Positions 1 to 55,784 of a stretch of 64,000 bases of DNA are shown here, in pieces. Position numbers and translations under genes: made by a program. The notes under the pieces are model-generated. The model made no database searches and was not told the DNA's origin. It worked only from the letters and a program-made list of their open reading frames with translations. Numbering within the stretch: position 1 is the first letter of the stretch; each line of letters opens with the position of its first letter. Origin of the DNA: Carpediemonas membranifera BICM (taxonomy: Eukaryota > Protista > Fornicata); the NCBI GenBank assembly GCA_019828565.1, contig JAHDYR010000067.1:214243-278242 (forward strand). The letters are read 5' to 3'.

Positions 1-372
1 ACCTACCTACGAATCACAAGAATGCCCCTAGCACGTCGTATGCAAGCAAAAATGAGACTTACCCGTACCTTCCGCACGTTTCTCTACGTTTCACAAACGT
101 TGGTGAAACGTGTGAAATAGTGAAAAAGATACGGGTGAATCTCATTTTTTCTTGCAGTTTCTTGTGCAAAAGGGTGTTTATCCTCCGTATATCCCCGGAT
201 TAACTGGCCATTCTAACAGTATGACGACACTCTCCACCGCTGGCTCGACCCTTCCGACCGGCTGCCGAAGCGTGCAGTCCTGCGGTCCTTCGAGTCATCC
301 TGCAAGAGCGCGGCCCCACACACGGTACGTGCGGTTCTGGAGACCCTAACGGCCCTCCAGAAGTATACGACT

Positions 373-3300
373 GTGACCGCGCTCGCCACTGACCTCGTAA
401 GCGAGCTCCGCGCCCTGGAGGTCGCATCAACACGGGCCGCCACTTACGCCCACACTCCCACACAGCCCAAGGTCCAACCTCCGGCTGCCACTGTGGCACC
501 ACCTGCCACGTCAACCTCGGTCGCCCCGTCTGCCGCTACAGCACCCAAGACGCCCGCGACCACCCGCACGCCCACTCAACCGAGACCTCAGGGCGCTGCC
601 AAAGCTACCCACGGCCCTAGAGCCCCAGCATCGAAGGGCTCGAAGGACGATTCAGCGGTCTCAGCCGCGTTCGCCGCAAGATGGTGTGACCCTAAGAAGC
701 CGCCATTCGAGGGGATGACGTGGTGTGATCTTCACGGTCGCTGGGGAAGCCACGAGCGTAGCAAGTGCTCGCTGGCCCAGCCTAAGATCACTGTCACCCC
801 GACTGCGACGACTCAGCCAGCCGCCGCCACCAAGACACACCCCATGAGCCTCCGCCAGAACCCGCCACAGAACAAGTTCCCCAACATGGTCGTCCATGCG
901 GTGGAGGCGCCTGTGAACCAGGTGGCAACCCCCGACTCTAAGCCCATCCGGGTCCACATCACCCTCAACGGGGTCCGGACCACAGCCGAGCTAGACACTG
1001 GCGCAGCGGTCAGTTGTGTCAGCGAGGGTACGCGCGATGTTATCGCAGCTGTTTCGAAGCAGCCGACTTCCCCGGTTGGTACCATCGACCTGAAGGTCGC
1101 CAACCAGGTGACCGTCGCAGCAGACCAGGTCCCTCTACAGCTCACCATGCCAGGTGCCAACACGACGCTCTCCCTAACTTGGAACTTCTCCGTTCTGGAA
1201 GGCCAAGGGCACTCCGTACTGCTGGGCCGGGACGTCCTCCGAGAGGTAGGACTGCTGACTGACTCGGCACTGATCATTCCGACGGAGGCTCCACCGGACG
1301 ATGAAGATGATATCGAGGCGATCGGCTACCTTGGGTCCGACTCTGCCGAGCCCGCTCGAGAAGCCGAGGTCCGCATTGCGGCGGAGCTTGAGAAGGTCAC
1401 TATCCCTGACGGTCCGCTTCACGACCGGCTTGTCGACCTGGTATACGAGTTCCGCGAGTTGTTCGACCCCGTCCTGCCGCCTGAGGGGTCTACCCTCACA
1501 CCGTTCACACTTGAACTCGAGGAGCCTTTCACTGCCAAGGCTAAGCCGCGACCCATCAAGGGTCACCTCGACGTAATTCAGCAGGAGATCCAGCGACTGC
1601 TGGACGAGGGCATCATACGACCGAGCGTCAGCCCGGTCGCGTCCCCACACGTTCTAGCGGACAAGAAGGGCGGCCAGAAGCGCTTCTGCGTGGCCTACAA
1701 CGCCCTTAACGCGGTCACGGTCAAGGACGCGTACCCGCTCCCGGACACCCGTGATTTCATCAACAGCGCATCAGGTTGCTCGTTCTTTGGCAGCCTGGAC
1801 CTGCGTTCGGGGTATAATCAGATGGTCCTCGACCCTTCTGTCTGCTCCTTGACGGCGTTCGTCGTACCAGGGGGTCAGTTCGAGTACGTGCGCCTTCCTT
1901 TTGGCCTCACGAACGCCCCTGGACGTTTCCAACGTGCAATGGATGACGCCCTTCGCGGCGTGGAGGGCACGAGCGTCTACGTCGACGACATATTGAACTA
2001 TGCCAACGACGCCGAAGTGTACCTCGCCAGAACACGACAACTACTGACACGCCTGCGCCAGCACCGTCTTCGGCTGAAGGCCGAAAAGTGCACCCTTGGT
2101 GCACCCGAGACGGAAGCCCTCGGTTTCGTGCTCAACCGCGATGGCCATCGTGTTTCCGAGAGCCGTAAGCAGGCCCTGCTCGATATGCCACGGCCCACGA
2201 CCATCAAGGAGCTTCGCCGAGTTCTCGGCAAGTTTAACTTCCTGGCCCGCTTCATCGACGGGCTGAGCGAGGCCGCCGAGCCGCTCCACCAACTACTCCG
2301 CCCCGAGGCAGACATCACCATGCAGTGGGGGGAGGTTCACGATGCGGCCTACGCTGAACTGAAGCGCCGCGCGACTGCCGACACCATTCTGGCTCTGCCG
2401 GACGTCTCTAAGACCTGGATCCTGGAGACGGATGCCTCCGACGTTGCCTGCGGCGGTGTGTTATGGCAGGTCTCCGATGACGAGTCGCGACTCCCCATCT
2501 CCTTTTTCGGGCACAAGTTCACAGAAACCCAGCGCAGATGGGCCACTGTGGACCAGGAGCTATACGGGATCATACATTGTGTTACCCGGGCAGATTTAGC
2601 TCCTCTGTTGAAGCTCAAACCTTTCCTCATCCGCACGGATCACAAGAACCTCGTCACTATGGTCATCAAGAGCGAGGAAGGCAATCGGAAGCTCACTCGT
2701 TGGCGAACGATACTAGCGGAGTACCCCTACTCCATCGAGCATGTCAAGGGCGCAGACAATGTCGTTGCCGACAGTTTGTCGCGGCCACCCGTGGTTGCGG
2801 CCGTCAACCTGTCCACGGAGGTGCGAGCAGCTCAGGCCGCCGACCCCTCGGTTTCGCGCCTGCCCACTGACGCCGACGGTCTCCACGTTCACGATGGGGT
2901 CGCCGTTATCCCCGAGGGAGCTACCGACTTGAAGGCGAAGCTCATCGCCGAGGCCCACCGCTACCACGCCGGCGCCGTCAACACAGCCGCTAACCTACGC
3001 GCGATGGGTTTCACCTGGCCAGCCGTCATCGACGACTGTCGTTCTTACGTGAGCAAGTGTGCCCTGTGCCAGAAGGCGCGACTCGCCCGTTTCAGAGAGT
3101 CGGCTCTCGCGTCCACCATGGTACACACACCGTTTGACACCGTCTCGGTCGACACAGTCGGCCCCCTTCACACAGACGCATGGGGCAACAGGTTTATCCT
3201 GGTCATCATTGACGCATTCACGCGTTATGTGGAGCTTGTACCCATGCCCAACCACACCGCGGACTCCGTCGCAGGGGCAATTTGGACCGCCATCATGGGC

Positions 3301-4188
3301 AGACATGGCCTACCAACCACAATTCGGACTGACAATGGCCCGGAGTTTGTGAACAGGGTCCTCAATGCCCTCCTCAGACGCCTCAACGTTACACACCACC
3401 GCACTCTGCCGTACCACCCGGCGTCGAACGGGATCGTAGAGCGCGTGAATTACGAGATCAAACGGCATCTCCGCCTCCTTTGCGCGAAGTTTAACACACA
3501 CAGCAACTGGTCCCCGCTGGTGCCGTACGTGCAACATGTCATCAATCACTCTCGTCACTCCGCAACGGGGTTCACCCCGCACCAACTCCTCTTCGGCTAC
3601 CCCTCCGGCCTCACGTTTGTACACGAGCCGGCTGACAGGGCCGAGACCGAGCCACTGGCTTCTCTGGACGACTACATGTCCGACCTTCAGTCGTACCTTG
3701 ACGGGCTGCGCGCGAAGGCGGTGGCGAAGCAGGAGCGCATCATCAGGTCAAGATCCGCTGTCACAGCGCAGTTCAAAGCGGGCGACTTCGTCCTCCTAGC
3801 CAACGAGAGAGAGACCAAGCTCCACGGTGCCATTGGCCCCTTTAAGGTGGTCAGCATAGGGGAAAACAAGGCTGTCACCATTCAGCATCTTGTCGATTTG
3901 TCGGAGCGCACTGTCCACCAGGACAAGCTCTTTCTCTTTGACGCCGACGCCACGCTTGAGCAGATGCGAATGTTTGCCGTCGGTGATCGGGAGGAGTTCC
4001 TCCCATCCCGCATCCTGTCTTGCGACAGAGACGCTCACACATTTCTGATCGAATGGGATGGCTTCCCGGCCTCGGAGGCCACCGAGGAGCCGATGGCCAG
4101 TCTGGCCAACCACCCCAAGGGCAAGCTAATCCTCAAGGATCTTGAGGAGGGGCAGGATGTGGCGTTTCCTGTCTCGTTGCTCCAGTGA
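373..4188 (+). CDS. Gag-Pol polyprotein (CHHC knuckle, protease, RT, RNase H, integrase, chromodomain); N-terminally incomplete
   Basis: WCDLHGRWGSHERSKC, LDTGA, LPFGL..YVDD, ETDASD, HHCC plus DTVG/TDNG/VER integrase core, GPF, terminal FLIEWDGF..ATEEP. Confidence 0.95.
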   Translation: MTALATDLVSELRALEVASTRAATYAHTPTQPKVQPPAATVAPPATSTSVAPSAATAPKTPATTRTPTQPRPQGAAKATHGPRAPASKGSKDDSAVSAAFAARWCDPKKPPFEGMTWCDLHGRWGSHERSKCSLAQPKITVTPTATTQPAAATKTHPMSLRQNPPQNKFPNMVVHAVEAPVNQVATPDSKPIRVHITLNGVRTTAELDTGAAVSCVSEGTRDVIAAVSKQPTSPVGTIDLKVANQVTVAADQVPLQLTMPGANTTLSLTWNFSVLEGQGHSVLLGRDVLREVGLLTDSALIIPTEAPPDDEDDIEAIGYLGSDSAEPAREAEVRIAAELEKVTIPDGPLHDRLVDLVYEFRELFDPVLPPEGSTLTPFTLELEEPFTAKAKPRPIKGHLDVIQQEIQRLLDEGIIRPSVSPVASPHVLADKKGGQKRFCVAYNALNAVTVKDAYPLPDTRDFINSASGCSFFGSLDLRSGYNQMVLDPSVCSLTAFVVPGGQFEYVRLPFGLTNAPGRFQRAMDDALRGVEGTSVYVDDILNYANDAEVYLARTRQLLTRLRQHRLRLKAEKCTLGAPETEALGFVLNRDGHRVSESRKQALLDMPRPTTIKELRRVLGKFNFLARFIDGLSEAAEPLHQLLRPEADITMQWGEVHDAAYAELKRRATADTILALPDVSKTWILETDASDVACGGVLWQVSDDESRLPISFFGHKFTETQRRWATVDQELYGIIHCVTRADLAPLLKLKPFLIRTDHKNLVTMVIKSEEGNRKLTRWRTILAEYPYSIEHVKGADNVVADSLSRPPVVAAVNLSTEVRAAQAADPSVSRLPTDADGLHVHDGVAVIPEGATDLKAKLIAEAHRYHAGAVNTAANLRAMGFTWPAVIDDCRSYVSKCALCQKARLARFRESALASTMVHTPFDTVSVDTVGPLHTDAWGNRFILVIIDAFTRYVELVPMPNHTADSVAGAIWTAIMGRHGLPTTIRTDNGPEFVNRVLNALLRRLNVTHHRTLPYHPASNGIVERVNYEIKRHLRLLCAKFNTHSNWSPLVPYVQHVINHSRHSATGFTPHQLLFGYPSGLTFVHEPADRAETEPLASLDDYMSDLQSYLDGLRAKAVAKQERIIRSRSAVTAQFKAGDFVLLANERETKLHGAIGPFKVVSIGENKAVTIQHLVDLSERTVHQDKLFLFDADATLEQMRMFAVGDREEFLPSRILSCDRDAHTFLIEWDGFPASEATEEPMASLANHPKGKLILKDLEEGQDVAFPVSLLQ

Positions 4189-4353: not shown

Positions 4354-5121
4354 CGCTGTACAAGTTTAATGCAAAACCCGCCATCGACACCAGGGTGTCG
4401 AGAGACCAAACGAGACTTAATCAAATTAAATGACAAGGCCAGGACTATGTCCTAGTTCCGCTTCTCGCGGCCGTCAATGATATCGCCGCCAACACACCGC
4501 TCAAACTGAACTACAGGGAGGAGGATGTCGGGTTTGACGTGCGCTCCATGCCACGACTAGACTCACTCGCCGACGCCATATCAATCCAATCCATACATGA
4601 TCGTGCATCGCGTGGCAGTGCAAAGTGGTCCGTTGTCTTTTGACATGGAAAGTAACGCGGGCGTGGCTTATTCAGAGATTCCAGTCGACCTAACCGGAGA
4701 CTGTCCCAGAGAACATAGTGGCTATCCCCGCCTTCGGGTAGATCGCGTAACAGGGTCGTGGGGGCATTGAAGAGTATCTCCCGGACAGAAGAGAAGATGC
4801 CTATGTCCGAGGAACGCAGAGAATCATCAGAGAATGGAGAGCGCCATAGACAAAAAGACCTGTGGGGGAAGAACCCACCTGCGAAGGTGCCGGGGACAGA
4901 TTTCTACGCCCTAATAGCGTGTCGGGCACTATTAGAGACAGGAAAACGGCAACACCGTACGGAGAGAGCTGAAGAGCTCGTAGACTGATTGGAACCGAAT
5001 CGAAGTCGACGCAGTAAGGTGGCTGGCTCAGAGCGTGTAACCCAGCACTGAGAGAGCCAGGAGTGCCCCGGTTAACCTTAGGCCAGGAAAATGGGAGCAA
5101 GAAGGCCCGGGGTGAGAATCA

Positions 5122-6458
5122 ATGTTCGTGGACGATACAGCGGTCACAGGGGAGACACCGGAAAAGAGCAAGATAGTGGCGAACCTAGTCATAGAAGTTA
5201 TCAAGGAGCACCTCATGAGGGCAAATGCACAAAAGAGTGAGATGATCAGTGTAGACAGGGCAGCAGTGGCGAGAGTGGGGGGAGTTACCCTAATGGCAAA
5301 AGAGGAAGCTAAGTACCTAGGTCTCTGGATAGCCAGCGGAAAAGACCCACTGGCAGCCTGTATCAGAAAGAAGCGGGAGCAGAGCGAAAGGTACAAGAAG
5401 CTAGTGAGAAGAGTGGGATGGACCAGAGGCAACATGCCGGCGCTAGCCAGCAGGCTCCTCCTCGAAGTTTACATATGGCCGAGGATAATGTTTGGAGTGG
5501 AGGTGTGGGGCTACGCAGCAGGGGGGAACAAGATATGGACGGATTGGCAGGGCATCATGGCCGGAACAGGCCCAGGTGGGGGCTCGGTCATGCGCATCTT
5601 GAACGGATGGATGGACCTGCAAGCCCACCTGGAGATGCTAGCAGTCAAGAGGATCGTGACAAGCAGGGGCCAGGATTTACCAATCAGAGACAGGGTCTGG
5701 AAGGAGGGATCGATTATGTGGAAAGCCAGGGACTCAGTGAACGCACTCCTCAGAGGAACAAGAGAGGGAGCAACGAATGCAGGGAAGATAGACTTTGGTA
5801 GGGAGATGGTAAGAATGAACTGGACCAGGAGGTGCAAGAGCAAGACAGCGGTGGGGCTCATGGAAGTCCTAGGACCCAAACGTATGGGAAAGTGCATGGC
5901 GGGGAAACCGGCCATAAGTAGGAAGACAGGGAAGTGGCAGTCAAGGGCAGAGTGGAAAAGGATAGTGTCGGTGGCAGCGAATGTCAGCCCGTCTCCATCA
6001 TCAGCGGAAAGGGGAGAAGGCCCAGAGCGAGCGCTGGCGGACCTGGCGATGGGTGAGGAACTCAAACACAAGATACAAAGGAGGTGCCCCTGTGCACAAA
6101 GGAGAGCGAGATAGAGTTACTGTGGCAAATAGCGAGAGAGCAGCCAAACCAAGCCAGGAAGCAGGCACTAATCAGGGAGTGGGTAAGGGGTCAGCCGCTG
6201 GGATCGGCGGCCCACATTATGTGTGAGTGCCCAGAGGTTGAAAGAGGAGATGACTGGGAAAAGATATGGAAGACAGCTAAGGAGAGGACCAGGGAATTGC
6301 AAGTCAGAAGAGGCCCGAATGGGAGGTGGTATGAGAAGAGGCCAATCTTAGAGGTGCAACAACTAGTGTTAACAGGGTCGGAAGAGATATGGGAAGGACT
6401 GCGAGCTGGGCTGAGAGCCCTGGCAAAGGTCTATGATAGCTATAGAATAGATGGATAG
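5122..6458 (+). pseudogene. LINE ORF2 C-terminal half: RT (FVDD, KYLG) and CCHC knuckle, with one frameshift near 6088
   Basis: ORFs 5122-6114 and 6084-6458 join as RCPLC...SAAHIMCEC if one base is added in the C run. Confidence 0.85.
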
Positions 6459-7231: not shown

Positions 7232-7484
7232 CCCGGGGTGAGAATCACAGCACCATCTAAACTTCTTCTTCTTCTCTACATGGAAAGTAACGTTACTGTG
7301 GTCTGTCTTAGGACACAAAAGGTTTTCAAGACTAAAGCTCGACACTCAAAGTGTCGAGATGGACCAATAAAGACCCTATTAAATGGAGGTATTTAATATT
7401 TAGCAAATATGGTTGCCGAAAGTTAAAATGACCTAACCTTCTTGCGCACTTTTAGCACTTTCTGAGCAGCTGAACTAGTAGCCA

Positions 7485-9040: not shown

Positions 9041-11445
9041 CGTCCAGCTCGGGGTGCTCCAGGTCTACTGCAGGCGGCTCTACAGGTTGATCTCCACTGG
9101 CCGGGCGGGTACTGGCACGACCGACACAGTGGCGGCCATGCCTCTACGTCTGAAACCCCACCCCTCTTCGTCGACCTCGGTGTAGTGATTGTTTATTTGA
9201 GTTTTGTCCTCTTCTGAGGTTTACTCTAAATTCCACTTCTCCTTTGCTTCAGTGTTTCACCACAGTTATAACTGGATCCAATGAATACCGAAGCTCTTTC
9301 CCAATTCCTGGCACCATACCTTAAGAAGACGTCCCAAAAAGCCTGGACGACATTCCGCGAGGAATACTTGGCTTATACAGCACGCGCAACAACTCCAATC
9401 CCCATCCACCAGCTCATCGCTCCCTCCGTCCTCGCAATCTTCTGCCTTCGTGATCCCCAGCTCGAAAGAGTGATCCACAACTCCATCACTCAGAGAATCT
9501 TCGAGGCTGAAGAGGCCAACAACGAGGAACCGGGCAACCTGCTCGCTCACGACGACGCAAGCGATGACAGCGAAGGATCCGACACCGAAGAATCCTCCGA
9601 TTCCGAGGAGGAAATCGTCGTTGATCCCATTCCCCACGGGGATATCGACTACAACGAGGTGATAATGAACGAGATCGATGAGATCTTCGCTCCACTCGAT
9701 ACCCAAGACGCTCTGGACCGCATCGCAGCTGTCTATTTCCAGCCGACTGATGACCTGTAGCAGCCTGTAATCGGCCGTAGATTCACAGTTCACTGCGATC
9801 AGAGAAACTTGCAGTGGATGGAGACTTCGGAGAACCCAAAAGTCGTCAGGTGGCGCCAAGCCTTGGACGGATTCGACTTCAAGGTCATACACGTTCCTGG
9901 TTCAGAGAACGGCGCAGCAGATGCTCTTTCGAGAGTCGTTGCCATATCCTGCGCAGACGCCGACGCAGAAAATCACCATGATGCAATTCAACGCGCACAC
10001 TGCGCAACTCGTGGCCATCAAGGCGTTACGGCTACAATTAACCGCCTAATACAAGACAATTGCTCCTGGAAAGGCATGGCAAGCGACGTTAAGGCATTTA
10101 TCAGCCAATGTCCCGTTTGTCAGCTCGCGAAGGGAAACATGAAGCCACCAGTACAGTTCAGGCATCCTACACACGGCGAGTATCCATTCCAAGTGGTACA
10201 AATCGACGCTATCGGACCTATGACGGAGATCGACGAGTTTTCCCATGCACTCGTCGTAATCGACACCTTTTCGAAGCTCCTTCAGGCATAACCGATCAAG
10301 AACACCTCATCCAGCGAGGCCATCAGAGTTCTTGACACCTTCTTTGGACACTACGGCTTCCCGAGCAGGATCTCATGTGATGGCGCCAGCCAGTTCACGT
10401 CCAAGGAGTTCCGCGACCACGCAGACCAATGCAACATCGCCCTAGAGATCGGCACACCGTACCATCCCGCCGGCCGAGGGATAGTTGAGCGCGCTAACCG
10501 CGAGGTTAAGAAGCATCTCCACGCGCTCGCTCTCGAGGCCGAATAACATTGGGTCAACAACATGCCCATCGCTGTAGACATCATCAACAACACCCCATTC
10601 ACTCGCTCAGGCGTATCACCGTTCCGTATGCTCTTCCACCGAGACGCACCAGTCGGCGAGCCCGACGACTCTATGGCGGAGCTGCTTAAGAAGTTCGCCG
10701 AGCAGACCACGCTGGCGAGACAGAAGCACGCAGCGCACCTTCCCCAAGCTGAACCAGTGTGGTTCGTTTGACGAACTATGTTTACAAGAGGAGAAGACTC
10801 GACACAATGGTGTCGAGGAGAAACTCCTTGACTAACTAATATCATATATAAATCTGTGTAATCTTGGGTGAGACCCATGACACTGCCCCTCCATGCCTCA
10901 ATGAGGCATGACCCCAGACAGCGTGAGCTTTGACGGCTGGCTACTGCCAGTGGGGGTGAATGTTGGCTCTTGGGGGCCGGTCCTGGTGGGTGCCAACCAC
11001 CGATCGAGCCCCTTTTTTGCGACCTTGGCGGGGACACAACAAGAAGCACAACGACGTGCAAAATAGCACAGCTTACAATCGCGCGGTACCGCTGGGTTAG
11101 AAGGATCCTACCATAGGGGTTCTGCCCCTCCTCGGCTTTTCCTCGCCGAAAATCGAAATGTGACGTACCTTAAAATGCTTGGGTGCAGGTTATGGCCATC
11201 CAAGCACAACGATGGTGAAACACCGCCCCTTTCCAACTGTTTGCGCCATTAATCAGGTTGGTGCTGAAAATGGCATTTTCAGGCCTCAACGAGGCCTCTA
11301 CGGCGAGATACGAGCCTTTTTCTTTGCAGCGTGAATTCACACCACGACTACGCTCAGATAGAGCTACTAAACGACTAAACAACATCAAGACAACAATAAA
11401 GAGATCATAACTCCATGTTTGAGCGGCTTTCCATTCGGGATTGGG

Positions 11446-12567
11446 ATGTTTCATTTTGCACCAATCTTGGTGCAAATGGTGACGGAACATTTGGGGGAAT
11501 TGGCGCGGTTGCTGCAGCTAGTAGCTTCTGAGGAATCTGATGATCCTCGAATGCGTTCTCTGCAGCGCCGTTGTGCAACATTGGGCTCCGACATCCAAAA
11601 TCTGCGATCGTCACGCGTAGCGCCGGGCAACAGGAGGCGCAAGAGGCTTGTGCGCCGTCCCGTGTGTCACTCAGAGCCCGCTTCGTCGGTAGACGAGAGC
11701 TCGAACGATGACAGCGAAGAAGACGAATCGCCGACTTCTTCGGACGATGCCCCGGGGAATGACAGCTCCCCAACGCTGCCAGACGGCCAGCCCGAAGCCA
11801 ACCAGCCTGCTGACGTGACTACTACGGTTCGCCAGCTCTCCCACGCCTCAGGAACGGACGTTTCGGACTTGAACCGGCTGGTCCATCGGCTGTTGGGCGA
11901 GCACGCCCATTCGATTGCTCTAACACTCACCCCGCTTATGAATTCTCTCCGTGAACAGCGGTTCGAGCGTGAGTTCTCCCTCGAAGACGTCGAACGCCAA
12001 CTTAAGGGTGTTTCTTGTGCGCGTCGCGTGTTGCTCGATCTTCAGGCCTTCATGAAACTTGCCCAGGCACTACCTGAACTGGACCTGCATCGCGCCGCCA
12101 CTTGGCACCATGAGATGGACGCTATCCGACGCAAGCTCCCTGGTAGGGGTGACAAGTCCCTCTGCCACCTCCTGGCCTTAGCCGTCTTCCCGGGAGTCTA
12201 TGGTTTGCTTCAAGAGGCTTGCTACCGGTCCTCTGATATACCGGAGATGGAGAAGCGATTCCGCTTGGTCATGCGGGTATTCAAAGCCCATCCACAGTGG
12301 GTACCGGTACTCATGACTACGGGCGACGGAGGGCTCCAGTTCACTGATGAGCTCCGTACTTATCGACTGGAACGAGTTGTTGGCAGTCGCAATGGCCCGG
12401 GTGGTCGACTCCTCACGTTGAAATGGGAAGACTACAGGTTTGTGACACGGTCGTACCCGACGCCGGAGTTGCTAGAATTGCCTGAAGTGGTAGCGCACCT
12501 TGCTCGTCACGGGGTTGAACCGCGCAGTACTGGACCTGCCTTCGCTGGTCGGGGCCGCCGACTCTAA
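11446..12567 (+). CDS. Antisense accessory ORF inside E3; unknown protein with acidic low-complexity tract and C-terminal chromodomain-like segment
   Basis: Uninterrupted ~373-codon ORF from the first ATG, converging on the pol stop; YRLERVVGSR...LTLKWEDY..TRSY. Confidence 0.7.
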   Translation: MFHFAPILVQMVTEHLGELARLLQLVASEESDDPRMRSLQRRCATLGSDIQNLRSSRVAPGNRRRKRLVRRPVCHSEPASSVDESSNDDSEEDESPTSSDDAPGNDSSPTLPDGQPEANQPADVTTTVRQLSHASGTDVSDLNRLVHRLLGEHAHSIALTLTPLMNSLREQRFEREFSLEDVERQLKGVSCARRVLLDLQAFMKLAQALPELDLHRAATWHHEMDAIRRKLPGRGDKSLCHLLALAVFPGVYGLLQEACYRSSDIPEMEKRFRLVMRVFKAHPQWVPVLMTTGDGGLQFTDELRTYRLERVVGSRNGPGGRLLTLKWEDYRFVTRSYPTPELLELPEVVAHLARHGVEPRSTGPAFAGRGRRL

Positions 12568-12610
12568 CAACTAATCAACAATAAATCAGGCGAGATGAGA
12601 ATAGGAGGGT

Positions 12611-15600
12611 TTACAACCCTTCCGACTTGGCCTGAGCAGACGACAAGAAGTCATCCAGAGCAGCAGCGTCTCTAAGGGAGCGGTATGGCTCCCAGGTAGC
12701 CTCGGAGTCTTCAAATCCTTGCCAATGGACAAGGTACTCTCTCTTTGAGACCGAGCCCGTGCCACGCGACTTGGATATCCGGTCGATATACCACTCCTCC
12801 ACGCCGGCGGCCGCCACCTGCTTGATCTGTTCCTCTGATAGGGTGCCGGGGACGAACTTTCTGACGCGAGACGCATCGACCCGGATGGGTTCCGCTCCGG
12901 GCTGACCTAAGTCTTTCACCATGTAGGCTACTACAACACCGCTCTGCTTGACAGACGACACTCGTCGCATAGGCCCAATCTCCAGCCCGGGGAAAGCTTG
13001 TTTGGAGGGCGCGAGGGATATTTCACGAGCACAAACCGTGACAAGATCTCCGTGCGGGTGGTGGAGGCCTTCGCCAACGCGTCTTCGCGCATGGCCAGGA
13101 CACGTGCCTTGGCCAATTGTGTAGCGGCTTCGGCAGCGAGGAGATGCGACGTACGAGCTGCTGCCGTGCTGTTCTCGGTAACGTATAACTACTCCGGCAC
13201 CGCCATGTTGCTCCCGAACAGTATCTCGGCGGGGGAAAGGCGTGTTGGTTGTCTTGGCATGGAATTGACAATAAACTGCGCAACCGGTAAATGCTGACGC
13301 CAATTGCCGTTTCTGAGCTCAAACTTCCTTGCCTTGAGCACTCTCTCGACCATCTGGTTAGCTCTCTCAACCATTCCGTTGGACTGAGGGTGATGCGCGG
13401 TGGTAACGTGTGTCTCGAACCCCATGTCCTGTGCCAGCTTCTTCATGAGAGCGTTATTGAACTCGGGACCTCCGTCAGACTGCAGCACTCGTGGGCAACC
13501 GTAACGCAGCACCCATGTGTTGACGAAGGCATCCACGGCATCGCGTGCGGTGGTAGACTTGACGGGGGCTAGCTCCGTCCACCTGGAACACATGTCTATC
13601 ATGACTTGGACGTATTTGTAGCCGTCACGCTCCGGGAGCGGACCTAGAGTATCGATTGCCACCCGCTGGAACGGTGCATCCACAGCCGTGTGTAGACCGT
13701 CTGTTTTTTCAACAGGCGGTCTCTCCAAGACCTGGCAGACAGGGCACTTGGCGACGTAGTCGTAAACGTCACGGCGAGTAACTGAAACACCGGCTTCCCG
13801 CAAACGTTCCATGGTTAACCGTCCGGAGAGGTGGGCGTTACCGAACGGGTGGGCTTTGCTGATCTCATCAACTGACGCTAGCGAGAATACGCGCGACAGA
13901 CCGTCGGCTCCCCCGTTGTCTAAACCGGCCACGTGCTTCAATTCGAAATCTAGGTCTGCAATAGAATCGGCCCATCTACGCACCTTAGCGTTACTCGACC
14001 TATACATGTACAAGAGGTTGCGATGGTCGGTCAGGAGCTCGAATCTCTCCCAGGACAAGAACTTCCTCCACTTCTGAAGGGCTGACACAATCGCAAAGGC
14101 TTCCTTCTCGCCGACACTCCATCTGGATTGGACGTCTGTGAAGGCTTTGGACATATAACACACGGGGCGACCCTCCTGCAGGAGGACAGCCCCGTACCCC
14201 ACGTCGGATGCGTCAGTCATCACGACATGAGGTTTGGTCGCGTCGAACATCGCCAAAGAATCTGCCGAGCACAAGGCTTCTTTGATATCCGCTAGGGCAG
14301 CCTCTAGCTCTTTCTCTGGCACGGCCGTACGGTTAGTCGTTGCAGACACGAGTGGTTTGGCGCGGGTCGCGTAGTTCGGTACGAAGTCGCGGAAGTAGTT
14401 AAAGAATCCGACTAGACCTTGCATCCCCTTGACTGTAGGCGACAGCTTCATGTCTTGGATATCGTTGACTCTCTCTGGTGAGATCCTGACTGACCCCTCG
14501 GAGATGATCCAGCCGAGGAACTCCACCTCGGCCCGACCGAACTGACACTTGTCCCTTCCGAGCTGGAGCTTGTACTCACGGGCGCGCTGGAGGACCTTCC
14601 TCAGGTTCTCGATGTATTCCTCTGGCGTGGCACCCATGACGATCACGTCGTCGATGTAAATGATGCAGGCGGTCCCAAGTAGCCCTCTGAACGCGTTTTC
14701 CATCGCTCTCTGAAAGAAAGCACCGGCATTGCGAAGCCCAAAGGGCATCCGTGTATATTGGAACTGGCCGAAGGTAGTCCTGAACGCGGTATACTTCCGG
14801 CAACGCTCAGTAAGGGCGATCTGGTGGTAGCCGGCAGACAGATCGAGCGTTGCGAACACTCGCTTACCCGAAAGTTGTGTGATAACTTCGTCAATTCGAG
14901 GGATGGGGTAATCAAATGGCTCTGTCATGGTGTTGACTTCACGAAAGTCGACGACAAAGCGAGTCTTGCCACCCTTCTTGGGTACGATGATAGTTGGGCT
15001 GGAATAGGCCGATTGACACGCCTGTATATACCTCTTGGCCAGAAGGGTATCGATGTGTTCCTTGACAACCGGGACCTTTGGGGGCGGAACATAGTAGGGA
15101 CGTACGTGGACGACTCGATCGCCCTTGAGGCATAGGTCGTAGGGCTCGAGCTTGCTCGGTTCAGTACGGTCACGGAAGAGGTCTTCGTACTCCTTGAGCA
15201 GCTTGATCTGCTGGCTCGCGATACCATCGGGGAGGGTAAGAGCCTTAGCTTCAAACTTGCTCGGGACGGGAGGATCGTCAGTTGCTTCGCTCTCCGAGTT
15301 GCTAGGCTGGGCCATTGAGGGCAGCAGTCCGATCTCTACCATCTGGCTGTAACCAAAACTGACTTCGTACGCAGTTTTGAGAACGAAAGCGCGGATCTTC
15401 AGCTCGCAGCCACGTGGCGTGAAGGGAGATGGCCTCAACGTGATCTGCACCGATACGGTGCCTTCAGCTTCTCGTATTCCACCTGCCGTTTGGATGCGTA
15501 CAGTATCGTGGTTGATCCTGGTAACGGCTGGCGAGGAGCACAGATCGGGAGATATCGTGGCACAGTCAGCACCAGAGTCTAGTAAGACCTTCACTTCGGC

Positions 15601-16651
15601 CTTCTCGATGACTCCATTGACTACAGGCAACGACCCTCCACCTGACGCAGCGGAAAATAAACACTTCGCCCCGTTTACTGGGGACTTAAAACGACAGAAC
15701 TTCTCGAGGTGACCCTGCTTCTTGCAAACCGGGCATGTGGCACGATCCCGCGGGCACTTGAAGGATGGATGGCCCGTCTCGCCGCAGTTGTAGCACACCA
15801 GCTCGCGCTTGCCCTCTCCTCGTTGGTTCGGGGGCTCTTGCGGCTGGCTTATCCTGATGATGAGGCTTGGCGATTGGCTTGGGGGCGGGATGGGTGGGTT
15901 CGTGGTGAAGACCGCGATGGGGTTTGCCCGACTTAGCCTTGGTTGACGACTGCTTGTCGGTCATTCCGATGGAACGCAGCATGGCACGGGATTCCTCGAT
16001 ATCGCGAGCGATATCAATCACCCGCGGCATAGCCAGTTCGAGGGAGAAGCCTTCGGTGAGATCCTTAACCTTGTACTGAACGCGCGAATTATCGGGTAGC
16101 TTAAAGCAACGCGCGTAGGTGTCGCAGAGGATCTCAGAGTCTACCCCGGGATCAACAAGGGAGAGGAGGGTTCTGAACCGTCGGTTCACTCGAACCACCT
16201 CCTGCGGAGTAAAGGACGAGATGGAGAGACGGAACAAGTCGAGACGGGCAGAAAAACGGGACGGTTGCAGTGCTCTACCGAGCCGCTTGAGGACGCGGTC
16301 GTCTTTAGCGAGACGCTTGGCCTTGCGCTTACGCTTGTGCGTCTTTCGGACAGCTGCGGTTAGGATGAGGGACTGCTGGAGGGGTTGCTCGTCGTCTTTA
16401 GGCGTTCCGGCTACTGGTGAACCTTCATCGTTCACGGGGACAGAGGCCTCGGCCGAGGGGATGGCTTCAGAGGCCTTGGCGAAGAGGTTAAAGCCGAGAG
16501 CGTCAGCGTACCGTTGGACTTCGGTGTCAATCATGTCGGCAACGTCGGCATCACCGCCTTTGGCTCGGTACTCGGACAAATCCTCGGCGAATCGGACTAA
16601 CGACTCAATGGTCGTCTTCTTTAGCATAGGCATATTGTTATAGAGCGTCAT
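12611..16651 (-). pseudogene. E3 Gag-Pol (2 CCHC knuckles, PR LDSGA, RT YIDD, RH, IN, chromodomain) with two frameshifts and an in-frame TAG
   Basis: Extra base in a C run near 15833; TAG at 13189-13191; shift near 12975; ORFs 15686-16654, 13189-15798 and 12611-13303. Confidence 0.92.
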
Positions 16652-17322
16652 CAAAACGTGGAATACTAGTATTGTGGTTCGTTTGACGAACTATGTTTAC
16701 AAGAGGAGAAGACTCGACACAATGGTGTCGAGGAGAAACTCCTTGACTAACTAATATCATATATAAATCTGTGTAATCTTGGGTGAGACCCATGACACCA
16801 GGCCCTCACCACGACAAGTCCATCGTCGGCAAAGCAGCCATGGTCCGCACCTACACCCGCGTAGGCTACAAGCAGCGCGGCCCCGTCCGAGTTGTTGGTG
16901 TGAGCACCAAGCCCAACACGTACAGCCTGCATGACCCGACCACGGAGACATCATTCGTGGCTCACGCAGACAGCATCCTCCAGTTCCAGGGCGACTACAC
17001 CGACGACGAGCTAAAACACTGGGCGCTGAAACTCGCAAGAGAGTATGAGGTAGACCAGATCGTGGGCCACCGCACCCAAGACGGGACCCTTCAGTTCAAG
17101 ATCCGCTGGCTCGGGTACACAAGCGAGGACGACTCCTGGGAGAACTACACACGCGAGATCAACAAGCTAGAAGCACTAGACATTTACCTTGAACAACACC
17201 CACACCTCAAGCCGACCCTGGCAGCCCAACGTAAGCGGAAATCATACATCAGATAATCGAGATTATGGGGGCTGGGCACGATATCCGCGACATCCACGTG
17301 TGACCGTTTCTTACTTTCCGGG

Positions 17323-23037: not shown

Positions 23038-26000
23038 TGTAGCACGACATAAACTGCATCCTGTCTTTTAGTTCACACAGTGCCACAGAAGCTTCTACAG
23101 CATCAAGAACACATGGACAAGACTATTGAGCCGCCCGACACTGCGGATATCGCAAAATGGGCCGCTTGGGGCGATGCAATTCAGACGCAAGCCCAAACGA
23201 AGAAGAAACCCACGCCCCTGAGAGGACACCTCACTGGCGCTGGCGAGAAGGTTATACACACCATATATAGACCCAACGTGCCCTATATCACGCTCAAGGG
23301 CACCGAGCTGAAACATCAATCCGGTCCTCAGAAGTTCCTCCAACGGCTGGGTGACGAAATTGAGGAGTTCCTCTCCAAGCCTCTCACGACCACGTCAGCA
23401 GATACACGACACACTCAGTCACAAATAGAGAATCTACAGGCCCTCATCGCCATGTCGGAAGAGGACGAGACCCTCAAGGACGAAGTGGGACCCATGAAGG
23501 CGGAACTCAGAACCCTACGGATGGAGCTCCGTCAGAAGCTCAAGACCGCCAACGCCTCCTCCTCCACTAACACGACTAATATGACACTCTCCCAGGCCAT
23601 CTGCAGACAAGTACAAAACTTCATGCAGTGGTTCCGCTTGAGTGCAAGCATTGGAGATGAGAAGTGCAAAGCCGCACTCAGGGCACTGTCCCGCCCTGGT
23701 CCACGCAGGACGCGCCAGGAGGCGCTCTCAGCAATCCTCACCTACCTGGCCGAGTTCGAGCGACTTTATACGCTCCTATACCCTCCTGACGACTCAGATG
23801 AGACACCACAACTATCCACGGACTTGTGCATCGAGATCAAAACGATCCTTGTCCACGCCATGGATCACCTCGACGCCAGGAGCCTGGAGCAGCTCCTAGG
23901 CACGTCCGATCATCGCATCCACAGGGCGAGTGAAAGCGTCAGCACCCTCATCAACGCCATGCGCGATAACGCGATTCTCGCTAAGGAGAAGGCGGAGTTT
24001 ATCGAGCCCCTATACACATTTGATCATGCCAGACCGACAGCCGCCGAGGCGAGGAAGCCCGGCCAGGGCCCAGTCCAGCCCGCTGGCTCGTCCGGCAAGT
24101 CATGCGCGTTCCACCTGAGCAAGACGCACACCACGGCGGACTGTACCGTCTGTAAGCAGCTGACCGACAAGACCGTCCAGAACCCGGACGTTACCGATGC
24201 CCAGTTGCTCTCTCATTATGCCACCTGCCATAAGCACGGGAAGAAACCTTACGGCCCGGCCAAGGCGCTATTCGATAAGCGCAAGCTGAAGGAGCCGGCC
24301 TATGGGACTGCCGCCGCGACCGTCAAGCGTGCCCCGCGGCCCGGCAAGGTTTCCTTCATCCCTGACGATCAAGTCGAGCCCCTCATGACCGACATGCCCG
24401 AGAGCACCATGGTCTATCAGGCTCTCATGCAAGCCGAATCCAAGGGCAAGGCCATCGTCGTGCGCCTGGACACGGCGAACGAGCAGTTCCCGATCCTCAT
24501 GCGCCCCGACGCGGCGGAGTACCTTGGCCTTACAGTCACGCCCGAGCGCGGCGACGTCAATGGTTGGAAGGCTGTCCATGGAGAATACGTGGGCACCACA
24601 CGCTTCACGCCGATCATCTCGCAGCCCTATTTCGACATACCCGTCCGCGCTGCCGAGCCCCTCGCGGCTTATATCGTAGAGGACCTACCTGTCGCTGTGC
24701 TATACGGCACCGTTGCCCTCCGCGCAGTGGGTATGGACTTCCTCAAGAACAACCGGGCCAAGCCCGAGTCGACCCCATCCATGACGAAAGATCCTACGGA
24801 CTTCCGCTCATTGTTCAACCTCTTCATCAGGTCACCCGGAGAGTCAACCCCGACACTCCCAACTATATACGATGAGAACCTCGGCTCGCTCGCCGAGCAG
24901 TTCCATGCGCTCGTGGTAGAGTACGCCGACATCTTCGGCCCGTTCGACGAGCAAGGCTCCGATCTGCCACCCTTTGAGATACACCTCAAGCCCGACGTCC
25001 TCCCCTCCCAGGTTCTACGCCCGATCAGAAATAAGGCGCAGAAGGACGCCATGCGGCTCTTCATTGATGACATGCTGGCCAAGAACATCATCTCGGCAAC
25101 GACCGACACCCTCGACTGGCTGTCGCCCGTATTTATGGTGGACAAGCCGTCCGCTACACCCCCGTTCCGGCCCGTGTTAGATTACCGAGCCCTCAATGAC
25201 GCTACGCGCCCTGAGATTTACACCATGCCCACAGCAGATGAACTGTTCGAGCAATGCAGAGGTGCCGAGGTTTTTGCCTCATTCGACCTCACCGCTGGCT
25301 TTCACCAGCTCGTTATGGACCCAGACTCAGCCAAACTGACAGGCTTCGAGTTCGACGACGTCCGTTATATCTTTAACAGGCTTCCGTTCGGTGTCACCAA
25401 CGGCCCCATGGCGTTCCAGAAACGCATTGACGACCTACGCCGCCAGTATAAGCTCCCATGCCTGGCGTTTGTAGACGATATACTGTGCTTCGCTGGCTCT
25501 GTCCAGCAGCTCCTCGATGTCCTCCGCGAGCTATTCCCTGTCCTCCAGCAGCACCGCATACGCCTCTCTGGTCGGAAATCGCACATCGGACTGAAGGAGA
25601 TCGTCTATCTGGGTTGCCTCGTCAGCGGCACCGGTGTCCGCATCGACCCTGCCCGCGTCGAGAGCATACATAAGCTCAGCACCCCTCGCACTGCCAAGAT
25701 GGCCCATCACATTGTCGGCATCTTCGGCTTTGTGAGGAGGCACATCCCAGATTTCATCCGCCTCGCCGCACCGCTCGAAGCACTGAAGAACGGTGAGACC
25801 GTCGAGCCGGAGCAGCTCGAGTGGGCTATGACCAGCCTCAAGCAAGCTGTCGCCAGACAGATCGAGCTGACGCACTTCGACCCCAACAGCCGCGTGGACC
25901 TCTATACTGACGCCTCAACCACCGGCATTGGCGCAGTGCTTATGCAGGGCGACCGCCCTCTCGCGTTCTACTCCAGGCGCTTCGACAAGCAACAACAGGT

Positions 26001-27677
26001 CTGGAAGATCGTCGAACAGGAGATGTTTGCGGTATACTCTGCCCTTGAGCGCTTCCGCTCACTACTGATCGGGACCGAGACGATACTGCACACCGACAAC
26101 AGCTGCCTCGTACAGATGGTTAGCTCGGATACGCCCAAGGTGATACGCTGGGCTCTTGAGATCGCACGGTTCCCGGTCACCGAGATCGTCCACGTACCGG
26201 GCGACATGAACACCGCCGCTGACGGGCTGAGCCGCCTGCCGTTCGTAATGTCCGTCATCGCCACATCGGGTCTCACTGACACGCAGAAGCGCGAGCGCTT
26301 CCTCATGGTGCACCATCGACACCACGCCGGACTCGAGACCACCCTCGCCCTCCTCGAGAAGGCAGGTCTCCTCTGGGCAAGCGCCAGGACCGATGTCGAC
26401 AAGATGATCAAGAGGTGTGTGACCTGCCAACGAGACCGAGCGACGCCGAACGTGGCTTACAACCCGGGCCATCTCCCGCCTGCCCGTCCACTCGCCACCT
26501 TATACATCGACACAGTGGGACCGATCGACCGACCGGACAACGGTTATCGGTACATCATGACGTGCATTGATAGCGCGACTCATCTGACTCACCTGATCCC
26601 ACTCAAGACTTTAGATGCGCGGTCCACCATCCGAGCAATTCGCTCGCAGATCATCGCACGATGGGCCTGCCCAGATACCATTGTTACCGACAGTGGAACA
26701 CAATTCTGCAACGCGGAGTTCGACCATTTCTGCGCAACATTCGGGATCATACACCATAACACGACGCCCGAGCGCCACGAGGGTAATGCACTCGTTGAGC
26801 GAACGAACAGAGAGGTGAATAAGCACCTCCGCATCTCACTATCCTCTTTGCCTGACTGCTCCCGCGCAGGCTGGCGTTCAGCTATGATACAGGCTGAAAT
26901 CAACATTAACGCCACGCCATCCAGAGTTTTAGGCGGTGCAACGCCTCGTGAAGCTGCACTCGCTGCTGCACTCGCCTACCACCAAGTTAAGAATGCCGAG
27001 CCTTCGACTCGCACTGCCATAACCGATGAAACCATGAAGAACGCTGCGGAAGTACTCGGTAAGCTCCAGGAGTTCCAACTCCGTCAGAAGGGGGTGAAAG
27101 ACCAGTACTATCCCTCCGCTCGCTTCACCAGCCTGCCTCTGGGGAGCTGGGTGCTCGTCAAGCGCGACAAGCCCATCTCCAGACTGCAGTACACTATGAG
27201 AGGCCCTTACTACGTTCAAGGCAACGGTGAGGAGCCCGATTCCTATGTCCTCGTCAATCCTGTCACCAGGAAGACCATTATCCGTTTCGCCGACCGCTTG
27301 GCCAAGCTGCCCAACACGGGCCCGACGCTGACGATGGCCGAGGCGGCCAGAGCGTTCACCGCTGACAGCAACTGGAAGGTTGTCGACCATGTGGTCCAGT
27401 ACAGACTGGATTCTCAGACCAACGAGCCTATCGTTACGGTGAACTGGCTTGGCTTCGAGCACGATGAAGACTCAGAGCTCGCCTTCTCCGACTGTATGAC
27501 ACTTGATGCCCTGCTTAAGTATCGAGACCAGCATCCTCAATTCGATCGCGCCTGTAAGCGATTCGAAGCTACCACGCGCAACCATCCGCGCCCCCGCCGC
27601 TAATGATGTGCCGGCTCTAGGGGGGAATGTAGCACGACATAAACTGCATCCTGTCTTTTAGTTCACACAGTGCCACA
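23038..27677 (+). mobile_element. Intact gypsy element E4 with identical 50-bp LTRs and 6-bp TSD
   Basis: LTRs at 23038-23087 and 27628-27677; TSD TCGTGA (23032-23037, 27678-27683); PPT AGGGGGGAA at 27619-27627. Confidence 0.97.
23113..27603 (+). CDS. E4 single-ORF Gag-Pol with chromodomain
   Basis: CAFHLSKTHTTADC, LDTAN protease-like site, LPFG..FVDD, TDAS, integrase core, GPY, VNWLGFE; no stops. Confidence 0.95.
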   Translation: MDKTIEPPDTADIAKWAAWGDAIQTQAQTKKKPTPLRGHLTGAGEKVIHTIYRPNVPYITLKGTELKHQSGPQKFLQRLGDEIEEFLSKPLTTTSADTRHTQSQIENLQALIAMSEEDETLKDEVGPMKAELRTLRMELRQKLKTANASSSTNTTNMTLSQAICRQVQNFMQWFRLSASIGDEKCKAALRALSRPGPRRTRQEALSAILTYLAEFERLYTLLYPPDDSDETPQLSTDLCIEIKTILVHAMDHLDARSLEQLLGTSDHRIHRASESVSTLINAMRDNAILAKEKAEFIEPLYTFDHARPTAAEARKPGQGPVQPAGSSGKSCAFHLSKTHTTADCTVCKQLTDKTVQNPDVTDAQLLSHYATCHKHGKKPYGPAKALFDKRKLKEPAYGTAAATVKRAPRPGKVSFIPDDQVEPLMTDMPESTMVYQALMQAESKGKAIVVRLDTANEQFPILMRPDAAEYLGLTVTPERGDVNGWKAVHGEYVGTTRFTPIISQPYFDIPVRAAEPLAAYIVEDLPVAVLYGTVALRAVGMDFLKNNRAKPESTPSMTKDPTDFRSLFNLFIRSPGESTPTLPTIYDENLGSLAEQFHALVVEYADIFGPFDEQGSDLPPFEIHLKPDVLPSQVLRPIRNKAQKDAMRLFIDDMLAKNIISATTDTLDWLSPVFMVDKPSATPPFRPVLDYRALNDATRPEIYTMPTADELFEQCRGAEVFASFDLTAGFHQLVMDPDSAKLTGFEFDDVRYIFNRLPFGVTNGPMAFQKRIDDLRRQYKLPCLAFVDDILCFAGSVQQLLDVLRELFPVLQQHRIRLSGRKSHIGLKEIVYLGCLVSGTGVRIDPARVESIHKLSTPRTAKMAHHIVGIFGFVRRHIPDFIRLAAPLEALKNGETVEPEQLEWAMTSLKQAVARQIELTHFDPNSRVDLYTDASTTGIGAVLMQGDRPLAFYSRRFDKQQQVWKIVEQEMFAVYSALERFRSLLIGTETILHTDNSCLVQMVSSDTPKVIRWALEIARFPVTEIVHVPGDMNTAADGLSRLPFVMSVIATSGLTDTQKRERFLMVHHRHHAGLETTLALLEKAGLLWASARTDVDKMIKRCVTCQRDRATPNVAYNPGHLPPARPLATLYIDTVGPIDRPDNGYRYIMTCIDSATHLTHLIPLKTLDARSTIRAIRSQIIARWACPDTIVTDSGTQFCNAEFDHFCATFGIIHHNTTPERHEGNALVERTNREVNKHLRISLSSLPDCSRAGWRSAMIQAEININATPSRVLGGATPREAALAAALAYHQVKNAEPSTRTAITDETMKNAAEVLGKLQEFQLRQKGVKDQYYPSARFTSLPLGSWVLVKRDKPISRLQYTMRGPYYVQGNGEEPDSYVLVNPVTRKTIIRFADRLAKLPNTGPTLTMAEAARAFTADSNWKVVDHVVQYRLDSQTNEPIVTVNWLGFEHDEDSELAFSDCMTLDALLKYRDQHPQFDRACKRFEATTRNHPRPRR

Positions 27678-54700: not shown

Positions 54701-55784
54701 GAGCATGGCAAGGAACACAGCTCTCTTGATGAAAACTGGACCGTTCGCGGTATCCAAACGAACGTTAGCGACGGCTGGAAGAGCGCCACGTTGGATAAAT
54801 GATTCGGCTATCGTGGGGGAGATGAGGTCAATAGTTGCACCAGTATCAAGTACTGCACAGACCTCTGTGGCAGTACTCTCGTTGATGGGAACATAGAGAG
54901 TGGCTTGGCGACAGATGAGGCCGTCGTGATCAGTGGCGGCCAGATTCGCCTTTTCGCGCTTGACTGGCGGACCCTGGATGGGAGTCTTGCGCACGCCAGA
55001 GCGGAAGAAATCTCTGTGTCCTTGATAGGGACAGTTGGGGCGGATGTGGCCCGTATGGCCACAGCCGTGGCAGGGGGCAGACGATCGTTGGGGTAGTCTA
55101 GCCCCAGCGGCGGCGCCGGGAGTCGGGCGCTTACCAGCTGGCTGGGCCGGTTCCGGCTGCAGGAGCGACTGGAGGTTAAGGAGTTCCTCCAGTTCATCAA
55201 TGGCGTGGTCCTGCGCCTCTGCGACGTCATCTGGCTGCTCCATGCGGATACGCTCCGCAAGAGGATCTGGAAGTGCCTGCAGGTATGCCTTCACCATTAG
55301 CTTCTCTGGTGGTGTGACGTCGGCTGTGAACGAGCTCCGGATAGTTTCGAAGCGTTCGATATGGTTGAGAAGCTGTGCAGGCGTTGATAAGGGGCCTGTT
55401 CGGGCGCACCGCAGCGACTTCAGCTTGGCTAGTGCTTGAACGTTACTGCGGGGGCTATAGAATGTTTGGTAGACTGTGTCCAAGACAGTATCCGCCGGAA
55501 GATCGGCCGGATTGTCGTTGAGACGGCGTGTGATGAGAAGAAGAGGCGTAGGATCCATCAGGGCAGTCGGATGGAGAAGAGGATCGTCAAGGCGTTGAGC
55601 TCGGTACGCACGGTAGGACGATCGGAACTTGGTGAACGCCTGTTCTTCTAGTGTTAGTAAGAAAGGTCTTGGTATGTAGTCGGACATTAGATGAGTGTAC
55701 ACTGTGATCTTGTCGAGGTTAAAGGTTTCAAAACAAACTGTTTATAGGGTTCGCACGTGTAGTTGGTACCCTAAACTGCTCACA
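51758..55784 (-). mobile_element. Gypsy element E6 with identical 82-bp LTRs, nested in E5
   Basis: LTRs at 51758-51839 and 55703-55784; TSD CCAA; PPT (plus-strand CTTCCCCTC) at 51840-51848. Confidence 0.97.
51848..55687 (-). pseudogene. E6 Gag-Pol (CCHC, PR, RT FIDD, RH, IN, chromodomain) with several frameshifts
   Basis: ORFs 53468-55702, 52363-53448, 52053-52463 and 51848-52366. Confidence 0.92.

Follow-up and report, generated by a model that had tools for sequence, protein, structure and literature searches.

The 64,000-nucleotide stretch of Carpediemonas membranifera BICM DNA considered here (contig JAHDYR010000067.1, positions 214,243 to 278,242 of the forward strand; hereafter the window) contains E3, a retrotransposon of the Ty3/gypsy type with long terminal repeats (LTRs) that lies on the minus strand from 16797 to 10758. 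E3 carries an antisense gene between pol and the 3' LTR, and it is practically certain that this gene is real and inherited in a clade of three families, constituted by E3 and two sister families, L001 and L002. The tail of the antisense protein very probably has a chromo fold, as indicated by profile comparisons and structural models, and on the same basis the balance tips slightly towards this protein being a methyl-lysine reader. That this inherited third gene encodes an anti-silencing protein acting in trans is a tentative proposal, to which we give somewhat less than an even chance.

An earlier note on this DNA, made from the sequence alone, had described in E3 an extra region of 1.7 kb with an open reading frame (ORF) of 373 residues on the opposite strand, converging on the pol stop with a gap of 43 bp, and all of this is confirmed. 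The 1.7 kb located between the pol stop and the polypurine tract (PPT) hold one plus-strand frame, which is open from 11371 to 12567 (398 residues from stop to stop). On the minus strand, the last position of the pol frame is 12611, which leaves positions 12568-12610 between it and the antisense stop. None of 2000 dinucleotide shuffles of positions 10883-12610 reached a stop-free frame of at least 373 residues (maximum 356), and the GC content by codon position of the antisense ORF (0.67/0.46/0.60) follows a pattern similar to that of gag (0.65/0.46/0.63). The features of the antisense gene are as follows:

11446 to 12567, plus strand: antisense accessory ORF, 373 residues from the ATG at 11446
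10893 to 11445, plus strand: non-coding spacer of about 0.55 kb, putative antisense promoter region
11632 to 11646, plus strand: basic cluster RRRKR (residues 63-67), candidate nuclear localization signal, followed by an acidic Ser-rich linker
11851 to 12290, plus strand: middle domain, helical by sequence pattern
12295 to 12342, plus strand: predicted beta-hairpin just 5' of the chromodomain, a motif also present in L001 and L002
12358 to 12513, plus strand: predicted chromodomain (residues 305-356), with cage positions Y306, W327 and Y330
12580 to 12585, plus strand: AATAAA, candidate polyadenylation signal 12 nt past the stop

In L001 and L002 the spacer has a similar length and shows TATA-like tracts, the basic-then-acidic profile is common to the three proteins, and in these two relatives the AATAAA overlaps the antisense stop. 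The antisense protein has no strong transmembrane segment (maximum hydropathy 1.5-1.8). Searches of PDB sequences, NCBIfam and PHROGs gave no significant match for the middle domain; Pfam hinted at a helix-hairpin-helix in L002 only (E 0.2), and this was dropped, as it lacks support in E3 and L001. A 38-codon upstream ORF in another frame (11415-11531) starts 31 nt 5' of the antisense ATG. The ORF is also surrounded by an imperfect 20-nt A/C-rich direct repeat (11381-11400 and 12566-12585, with an exact 10-mer ending in AATAAA), a third and weaker copy of which is found at 10136.

The earlier note had opposed the unbroken ORF to three lesions in gag-pol. Both facts hold, the breaks being two frame changes (near 15870 and near 12975) and an in-frame stop at 13189-13191, but the argument is weak, since three lesions placed at random would leave the ORF untouched with P = 0.48. 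A separate insertion, which the same note had considered, is not indicated: the flanks of the ORF show no target site duplication (TSD) of its own, just the weak 20-nt repeat.

With regard to close copies, C. membranifera J8273_3784 (P0002 in our set, known from its protein record alone) also has 373 residues, 369 of which are identical to those of the E3 protein. The exact protein of the window has no copy among the protein-collection entries, which makes P0002 either another copy or another version. It is the only homolog of the E3 ORF found among 5.8 billion clusters by word search and 1.84 billion representatives by phmmer; the phmmer and word-indexed searches with the E3 ORF and its relatives returned just P0002 and the last exon of L002 itself. 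ESM Atlas gave no usable match, and no relative appeared in the viral and genome contigs searched. The ORF is thus present as one near-identical sister protein and, as described below, in two diverged families, so that its absence from sister copies, which would have counted against the idea in the earlier note, is not what was found.

Relatives of E3 were collected by means of pol. The best 80 of 158 pol relatives were taken and 79 loci recovered, including L001 and L002, and among those best 80 the closest relatives found are the two pol proteins of these loci, with approximately 50% identity. In a tree of 25 reverse transcriptase (RT) rows, of which 5 came from the window and 20 were loci hand-picked from 77 RT-bearing rows, none of them a named chromovirus reference, E3, L001 and L002 form one clade with support 100/99. 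L002 comprises a complete element, with an LTR at either end and a single gag-pol of 1328 residues. Both loci contain an antisense coding region that converges on the pol stop, 34-44 bp away. In the window and the 79 loci, no other segment matches the antisense family or shows a second chromodomain. Some other Ty3/gypsy relatives (L007, L008, L010, L013 and L020) have a long sense third ORF past pol, which looks env-like by eye.

The antisense genes of L001 and L002 contain two GT..AG segments each, at aligned phase-0 positions, which are predicted to be introns: 5177-5149 and 4533-4506 in L002 (29 and 28 nt), and 982-953 and 325-297 in L001 (30 and 29 nt). The spliced models code for 391-393 residues, have no internal stop and are 48% identical to each other. 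Since the frame offsets differ between the two loci and removal of the GT..AG segments resolves both, introns are favoured, and a programmed frameshift or a shared sequencing error at these breaks was rejected. The exact junctions are provisional because there are 12-20 other GT..AG pairs per intron site. The splice signals resemble those of a 37-nt intron-like break in the GAPDH gene of the window. The E3 ORF has no intron where the second intron of the relatives sits; a 25-nt intron candidate (11650-11674) was dropped, since the frame read straight through it can be aligned with L001 and L002 to either side.

Purifying selection acts on the antisense gene between L001 and L002. The last exons are 61-62% identical, with a ratio of nonsynonymous to synonymous differences (pN/pS) of 0.37-0.39, and exons 1 and 2 give 0.60 and 0.67; for comparison, pol is 59% identical with a pN/pS of 0.41, and gag 24% with 0.86, all of these ratios being rough, as synonymous sites are near saturation. 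In the L001 copy, the last exon is broken by a solo-LTR-like TG..CA insertion (L001 1-129 and 6209-6308) that has a 4-bp duplication, and the L001 contig holds the element in circularly permuted form.

The relationship of the E3 ORF with these genes is more distant (22% identity to both L001 and L002). The comparison of the E3 and L002 antisense proteins gave a Smith-Waterman score of 86 (shuffle maximum 63, n = 1000), and of 135 with BLOSUM45 (maximum 89, n = 300). By hhalign, the E3 ORF aligned with a profile of L001 and L002 with a score of 30.4 over 126 colinear columns, the maximum of 60 shuffles being 21.7. On the other side, the pairwise comparison of E3 with L001 is not significant, since 512 of 1000 and 34 of 300 shuffles reached its score, a hidden Markov model (HMM) of L001 and L002 missed the E3 ORF among 19,290 segments, and the last exon of L002 alone ranked no higher than fifth among 2632 segments. 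The three genes also agree in site, orientation, size, charge profile, downstream AATAAA and domain order. Across the related families, the antisense gene shows roughly the degree of conservation seen in other proteins of the elements, E3 being linked mainly via L002. Capture of a gene as a recent event, another option raised by the earlier note, is disfavoured, as all three families have inherited the gene.

The identification of the tail as a chromodomain comes from four sensitive lines (phmmer, hhalign, the fold model and the cage columns), which are not fully independent of each other. A phmmer search with the 60-residue tail against 177,635 PDB sequences gave CBX5/HP1-alpha as the best match, gapless over 49 residues, with E 0.73. 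The three tails together matched 13 integrase chromodomains in hhalign with Prob 91%, E 9e-7 and a score of 33.3, which none of 150 column shuffles of the tail alignment reached (maximum 18.3). Sliding windows against the chromodomain profile scored only at the tail; in windows drawn from the E3, L001 and L002 families as controls, the maxima were 14.7 (57 pol windows) and 10.6 (14 gag windows). Single tails gave Prob 58% for E3 and 33% for L001.

AlphaFold2 (AF2), run on 112 residues with a four-row alignment of antisense homologs, predicted a beta-beta-beta-alpha arrangement with a predicted local distance difference test (pLDDT) value of 69.6 (77-87 in the core). The model is a three-stranded sheet capped by a C-terminal helix, as in the classical (group I) chromodomain. 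The top eight Foldseek rows are chromo or chromoshadow domains. In a VIA search over 48,161 chains, chromo-type domains occupied ranks 1-34 and the first other fold had Z 3.8. The best match was an eEF3 entry (Z 6.2, root-mean-square deviation (rmsd) 2.5, 63 aligned residues), followed among others by the HP1-alpha shadow domain (Z 5.6) and the HP1 chromodomain (Z 5.3, rmsd 2.2, 51 aligned); a second VIA run had a best Z of 6.3. We take the matched ranges of eEF3, New1, GEN1, ZMET2, cpSRP43 and some CHD entries to be chromodomains. Among the 60 ungapped columns of the tail alignment, precisely three hold an aromatic residue in each of the three proteins, and by alignment these are the cage positions: Y306, W327 and Y330 in E3, and Y/F/Y in L001 and L002. 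They correspond to Y24, W45 and Y48 as defined in PMC3350952. At the Y24 and Y48 positions the three proteins have invariant Tyr.

Several results weigh against this interpretation. Pfam found no match for the E3 antisense ORF at E ≤ 10, none of the three tails (E3, L001 and L002) matched Pfam Chromo at that level, and the PF00385 gathering score was not reached by the antisense tails. An HMM of eight integrase chromodomains gave 3.8 bits for the E3 ORF, and the L002 tail alone gave Prob 1.5% against the chromodomain profile. From the single sequence (94 residues), AF2 produced a model with pLDDT 42 whose fold search contained no chromodomain match. The best Foldseek E was 0.15, with none at E ≤ 0.001, and a BFVD fold search returned nothing at E ≤ 0.001. 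The best VIA Z (6.2-6.3) is below the caution level of the tool (8), so that no match is individually significant, and chromoshadow domains as well as the eEF3, New1, cpSRP43 and GEN1 domains score as high as HP1 chromodomains. L001 and L002 have F at the W45 position, and the TWE motif of strand 3 is absent from all three tails; this motif is typical of retrotransposon chromodomains, although a few classical domains also lack it (PMC3350952). In addition, the extra upstream hairpin of the model could fill the peptide groove. The case for a chromo fold rests on consistency across modest scores. The earlier note had aligned the tail by eye with the integrase chromodomain of the element; the two peptides that it quoted are there, Pfam Chromo is matched by the integrase tail (E 1.7e-8), and the chromodomain-like character of the antisense tail is upheld, a chromo fold being predicted for it.

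With respect to function, a chromatin-binding or anti-silencing role, already suggested in the earlier note, is one that we also infer. The antisense mRNA would be transcribed from a promoter in the 0.55-kb spacer, and the protein could be imported into the nucleus by means of its basic cluster. There, its chromodomain might bind marks of the H3K9me or H3K27me type, and the bound protein would loosen host silencing of element copies or compete with it. An antisense mRNA with a promoter of its own could be produced even when that of the LTR is inactive. The predicted introns of L001 and L002 would persist because they are antisense to the genomic RNA that is reverse-transcribed. However, the middle domain has no family match, and nothing shows how the protein would recognise its own element. 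A more specific version is more tentative still, at roughly one-third confidence: a protist LTR lineage would encode, on a spliced antisense gene, a stand-alone HP1 mimic that is nuclear, reads a repressive mark and reactivates silenced copies via its middle domain.

Anti-silencing has to be weighed against other uses of such a protein. It could be an integration co-factor, providing a second targeting or tethering module in the pre-integration complex and steering it to marked chromatin or repeats. Integrase chromodomains such as that of MAGGY bind H3K9me and have been proposed to steer integration (PMC3350952), a review proposes nuclear-import or accessory roles for ORFs of this kind (PMC7264820), E3 itself is inserted in another retroelement, and the antisense protein contains a basic cluster. 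However, all three elements already have an integrase chromodomain over the Pfam cut-off, and a separate antisense mRNA would not be bound to gag-pol stoichiometry. We prefer anti-silencing, because the integrase already possesses its own chromodomain with an intact cage, and regard the co-factor role as rather unlikely. A chromo fold that is not a histone reader, but a chromoshadow-like dimer or adaptor or a nucleic-acid-binding module (for instance, for element RNA or DNA), is likewise unlikely, with marginally less to be said for it. It would fit the HP1 chromoshadow and eEF3/New1 entries at the very top of the fold ranking, the extra N-terminal hairpin of the model, the absence of TWE and the F for W in the cage of two of the three proteins. 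Shadow domains, however, mostly lack Y24 and Y48 (PMC3350952), whereas both are invariant Tyr here.

HP1-like readers normally silence, and the protein, the convergent antisense RNA or both might instead dampen the element, through recruitment or spread of silencing or through double-stranded RNA (dsRNA) formed with the genomic transcript. The antisense unit lies wholly within the genomic RNA, and dsRNA-mediated regulation by such transcripts is discussed in PMC7264820. We consider this self-restraint improbable: action by RNA only would leave unexplained an amino acid conservation equal to that of pol, and the identical LTRs of E3 indicate recent transposition of a family that already had the gene. 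Least credible of all, and highly improbable, is a passenger, that is, a captured host gene or nested insertion useless to the element, or an E3 ORF unrelated to the genes of L001 and L002. The low identity to these genes, not significant pairwise for L001, and the A/C-rich repeat at both ORF flanks (11381 and 12566) would agree with it. Nevertheless, position, orientation, size and domain order are the same throughout the three-family clade, the gene is under purifying selection, no host homolog appears in the 1.84 billion representatives apart from P0002, and the flanking repeat has its third copy at 10136.

The remaining features of E3 are those of a Ty3/gypsy element with a chromodomain integrase:

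16673 to 16797, minus strand: 5' LTR, 125 bp, TG..CA, 100% match to the 3' LTR
10758 to 10882, minus strand: 3' LTR, 125 bp, TG..CA on the minus strand
10754 to 10757: left copy of the 4-bp TSD, in the integrase of another Ty3-type element
16798 to 16801: right copy of the 4-bp TSD
10883 to 10892, minus strand: PPT, the same as in L002 together with the first 8 LTR bases
15686 to 16690, minus strand: gag frame, about 29% identity to the gags of P0003 and P0004
13189 to 15960, minus strand: frame of the core from zinc knuckle through protease (PR), RT, RNase H (RH) and integrase (IN), with an in-frame stop at its end
12611 to 13318, minus strand: frame of the integrase C-terminus, containing a canonical chromodomain (Pfam PF00385, E 1.7e-8)

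In E3, Pfam detects a zinc knuckle, the protease, RT, RNase H and integrase domains and, at the C-terminus, Chromo, and the insertion site is inside the integrase of the second Ty3-type element. Programmed frameshifting, or else an error of assembly, could account for the first gag-pol break (near 15870). The published C. membranifera assembly was obtained from Nanopore and Illumina reads (PMC8516963), and if the window is of similar origin, sequence errors in repeats are possible. The primer-binding position is occupied by a 10-bp palindrome in E3 (16663-16672) and L001 (approximately 1861-1870) instead of a tRNA complement; with regard to self-priming, the E3 LTR contains no complement to this position. 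A hairpin TCGACA-N6/7-TGTCGA was found four times in the window against 0.05 expected (4384-4401, 7339-7357, 10799-10816 and 16714-16731), in both E3 LTRs and in two LTR-like ends of neighbouring elements, and it may be a cis-element common to several families.

Five more integrase-type ORFs with chromodomains are present in the window (217-4188, 16777-17256, 23053-27603, 51848-52378 and 55723-57399). Their chromodomains are variously diverged, some lacking a cage aromatic, and the 3' regions are short wherever a PPT is visible. In the element into which E3 is inserted, gag (9272-9760) is 41% identical to that of L003 (L003:432-1400), a locus from the same contig series as L001 and L002, and this likeness suggests a related host organism for that series. 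The retroelement cluster is adjoined by an uninterrupted radical SAM ORF (Pfam PF04055; 17498-18745, minus strand), possibly a lateral acquisition, and a non-LTR-type RT fragment (5116-6458, plus strand; weak RVT_1 match) has a 62-nt imperfect repeat on its flanks, at 4713 and 6788.

Antisense ORFs located 3' of pol are a described class and include Grande gene23, RIRE2, Retand and Boty brtn (PMC7264820, PMC11963269, PMC4227169, PMC8365987). The earlier note had placed them in plant Tat/Retand elements, where they are indeed known, but they also occur outside that group, in fungal Boty (PMC7264820, PMC4227169). The plant genes (Grande gene23, RIRE2, Retand with TRP28/PF04195 and PvRetro13 with an SMC-like domain) share with E3 the antisense site between pol and the 3' LTR (PMC7264820, PMC11963269) and are conserved like other element proteins; gene23 has its own promoter and encodes a nuclear protein (PMC7264820). 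However, Retand is a non-chromovirus lineage whose 3' region spans 3-6.5 kb and carries TRP28, SMC and domains of unknown function (DUFs), and Pfam finds no TRP28, SMC or DUF match in the E3 ORF, and neither PF04195 nor PF10536 in the antisense proteins. In fungi there is brtn of the Boty-like elements of Botrytis cinerea and Sclerotinia, also an antisense extra gene in a Ty3/gypsy element with an integrase chromodomain; compared by description only, it differs in that no chromodomain is reported for it in the accessible text of PMC7264820, PMC4227169 and PMC8365987.

Other accessory proteins differ from that of E3 in their domains. The Ogre eORF-3'R is also element-encoded but contains the Plant mobile domain PF10536 (PMC6317226 Additional file 4). 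Plant extra ORFs carry TRP28, Plant mobile domain, SMC and DUFs, with no chromodomain in that table, which covers just hits at E ≤ 1e-10 in at least five elements, and those of bdelloids are enzymes (PMC5408684). In protists, the EpiLTR/DAM-LTR elements (10.64898/2026.05.21.726589) combine epigenetic modules with a chromodomain, as E3 does, but methyltransferase domains are added to or beside the polyprotein, and the word "antisense" has 0 occurrences in the available text. VANC, the anti-silencer of VANDAL elements, whose fold resembles the host chromatin factor MAIL1 (10.1101/2024.04.02.587720), is likewise an accessory protein, though of a DNA transposon and with a different domain. The E3 tail itself resembles the group I chromodomain of MAGGY and those of HP1/CBX (PMC3350952; PDB 8uxq, 6mha) in its predicted three strands and helix and in the Y24/W45/Y48 aromatics, but it ends a separate antisense protein, stays under the Pfam cut-off, has no TWE and is preceded by an additional hairpin. 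The open-access literature searched yielded no chromodomain-bearing antisense ORF; the layout is known, and the chromodomain cargo appears to be new.

Assigning a function to the antisense accessory ORFs of LTR elements has been difficult (PMC7264820, PMC11963269), partly because most of them have no interpretable domain. Here the protein ends in a module whose mode of binding is known and which offers three residues for mutation, and this makes the question of function directly testable. As the domain lies below the thresholds of Pfam and searches of the CD-search type, similar cases may hide among ORFs labelled as unknown. If the proposal is true, this would be, within the open-access literature searched, the first case of a histone-reader module in an antisense accessory ORF, and the HP1-mimic gene would be the LTR-element counterpart of VANC. 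The three families also show that genes of this kind can have a long history, be under selection as strong as that on pol and contain predicted spliceosomal introns, in a eukaryotic group far from plants and fungi.

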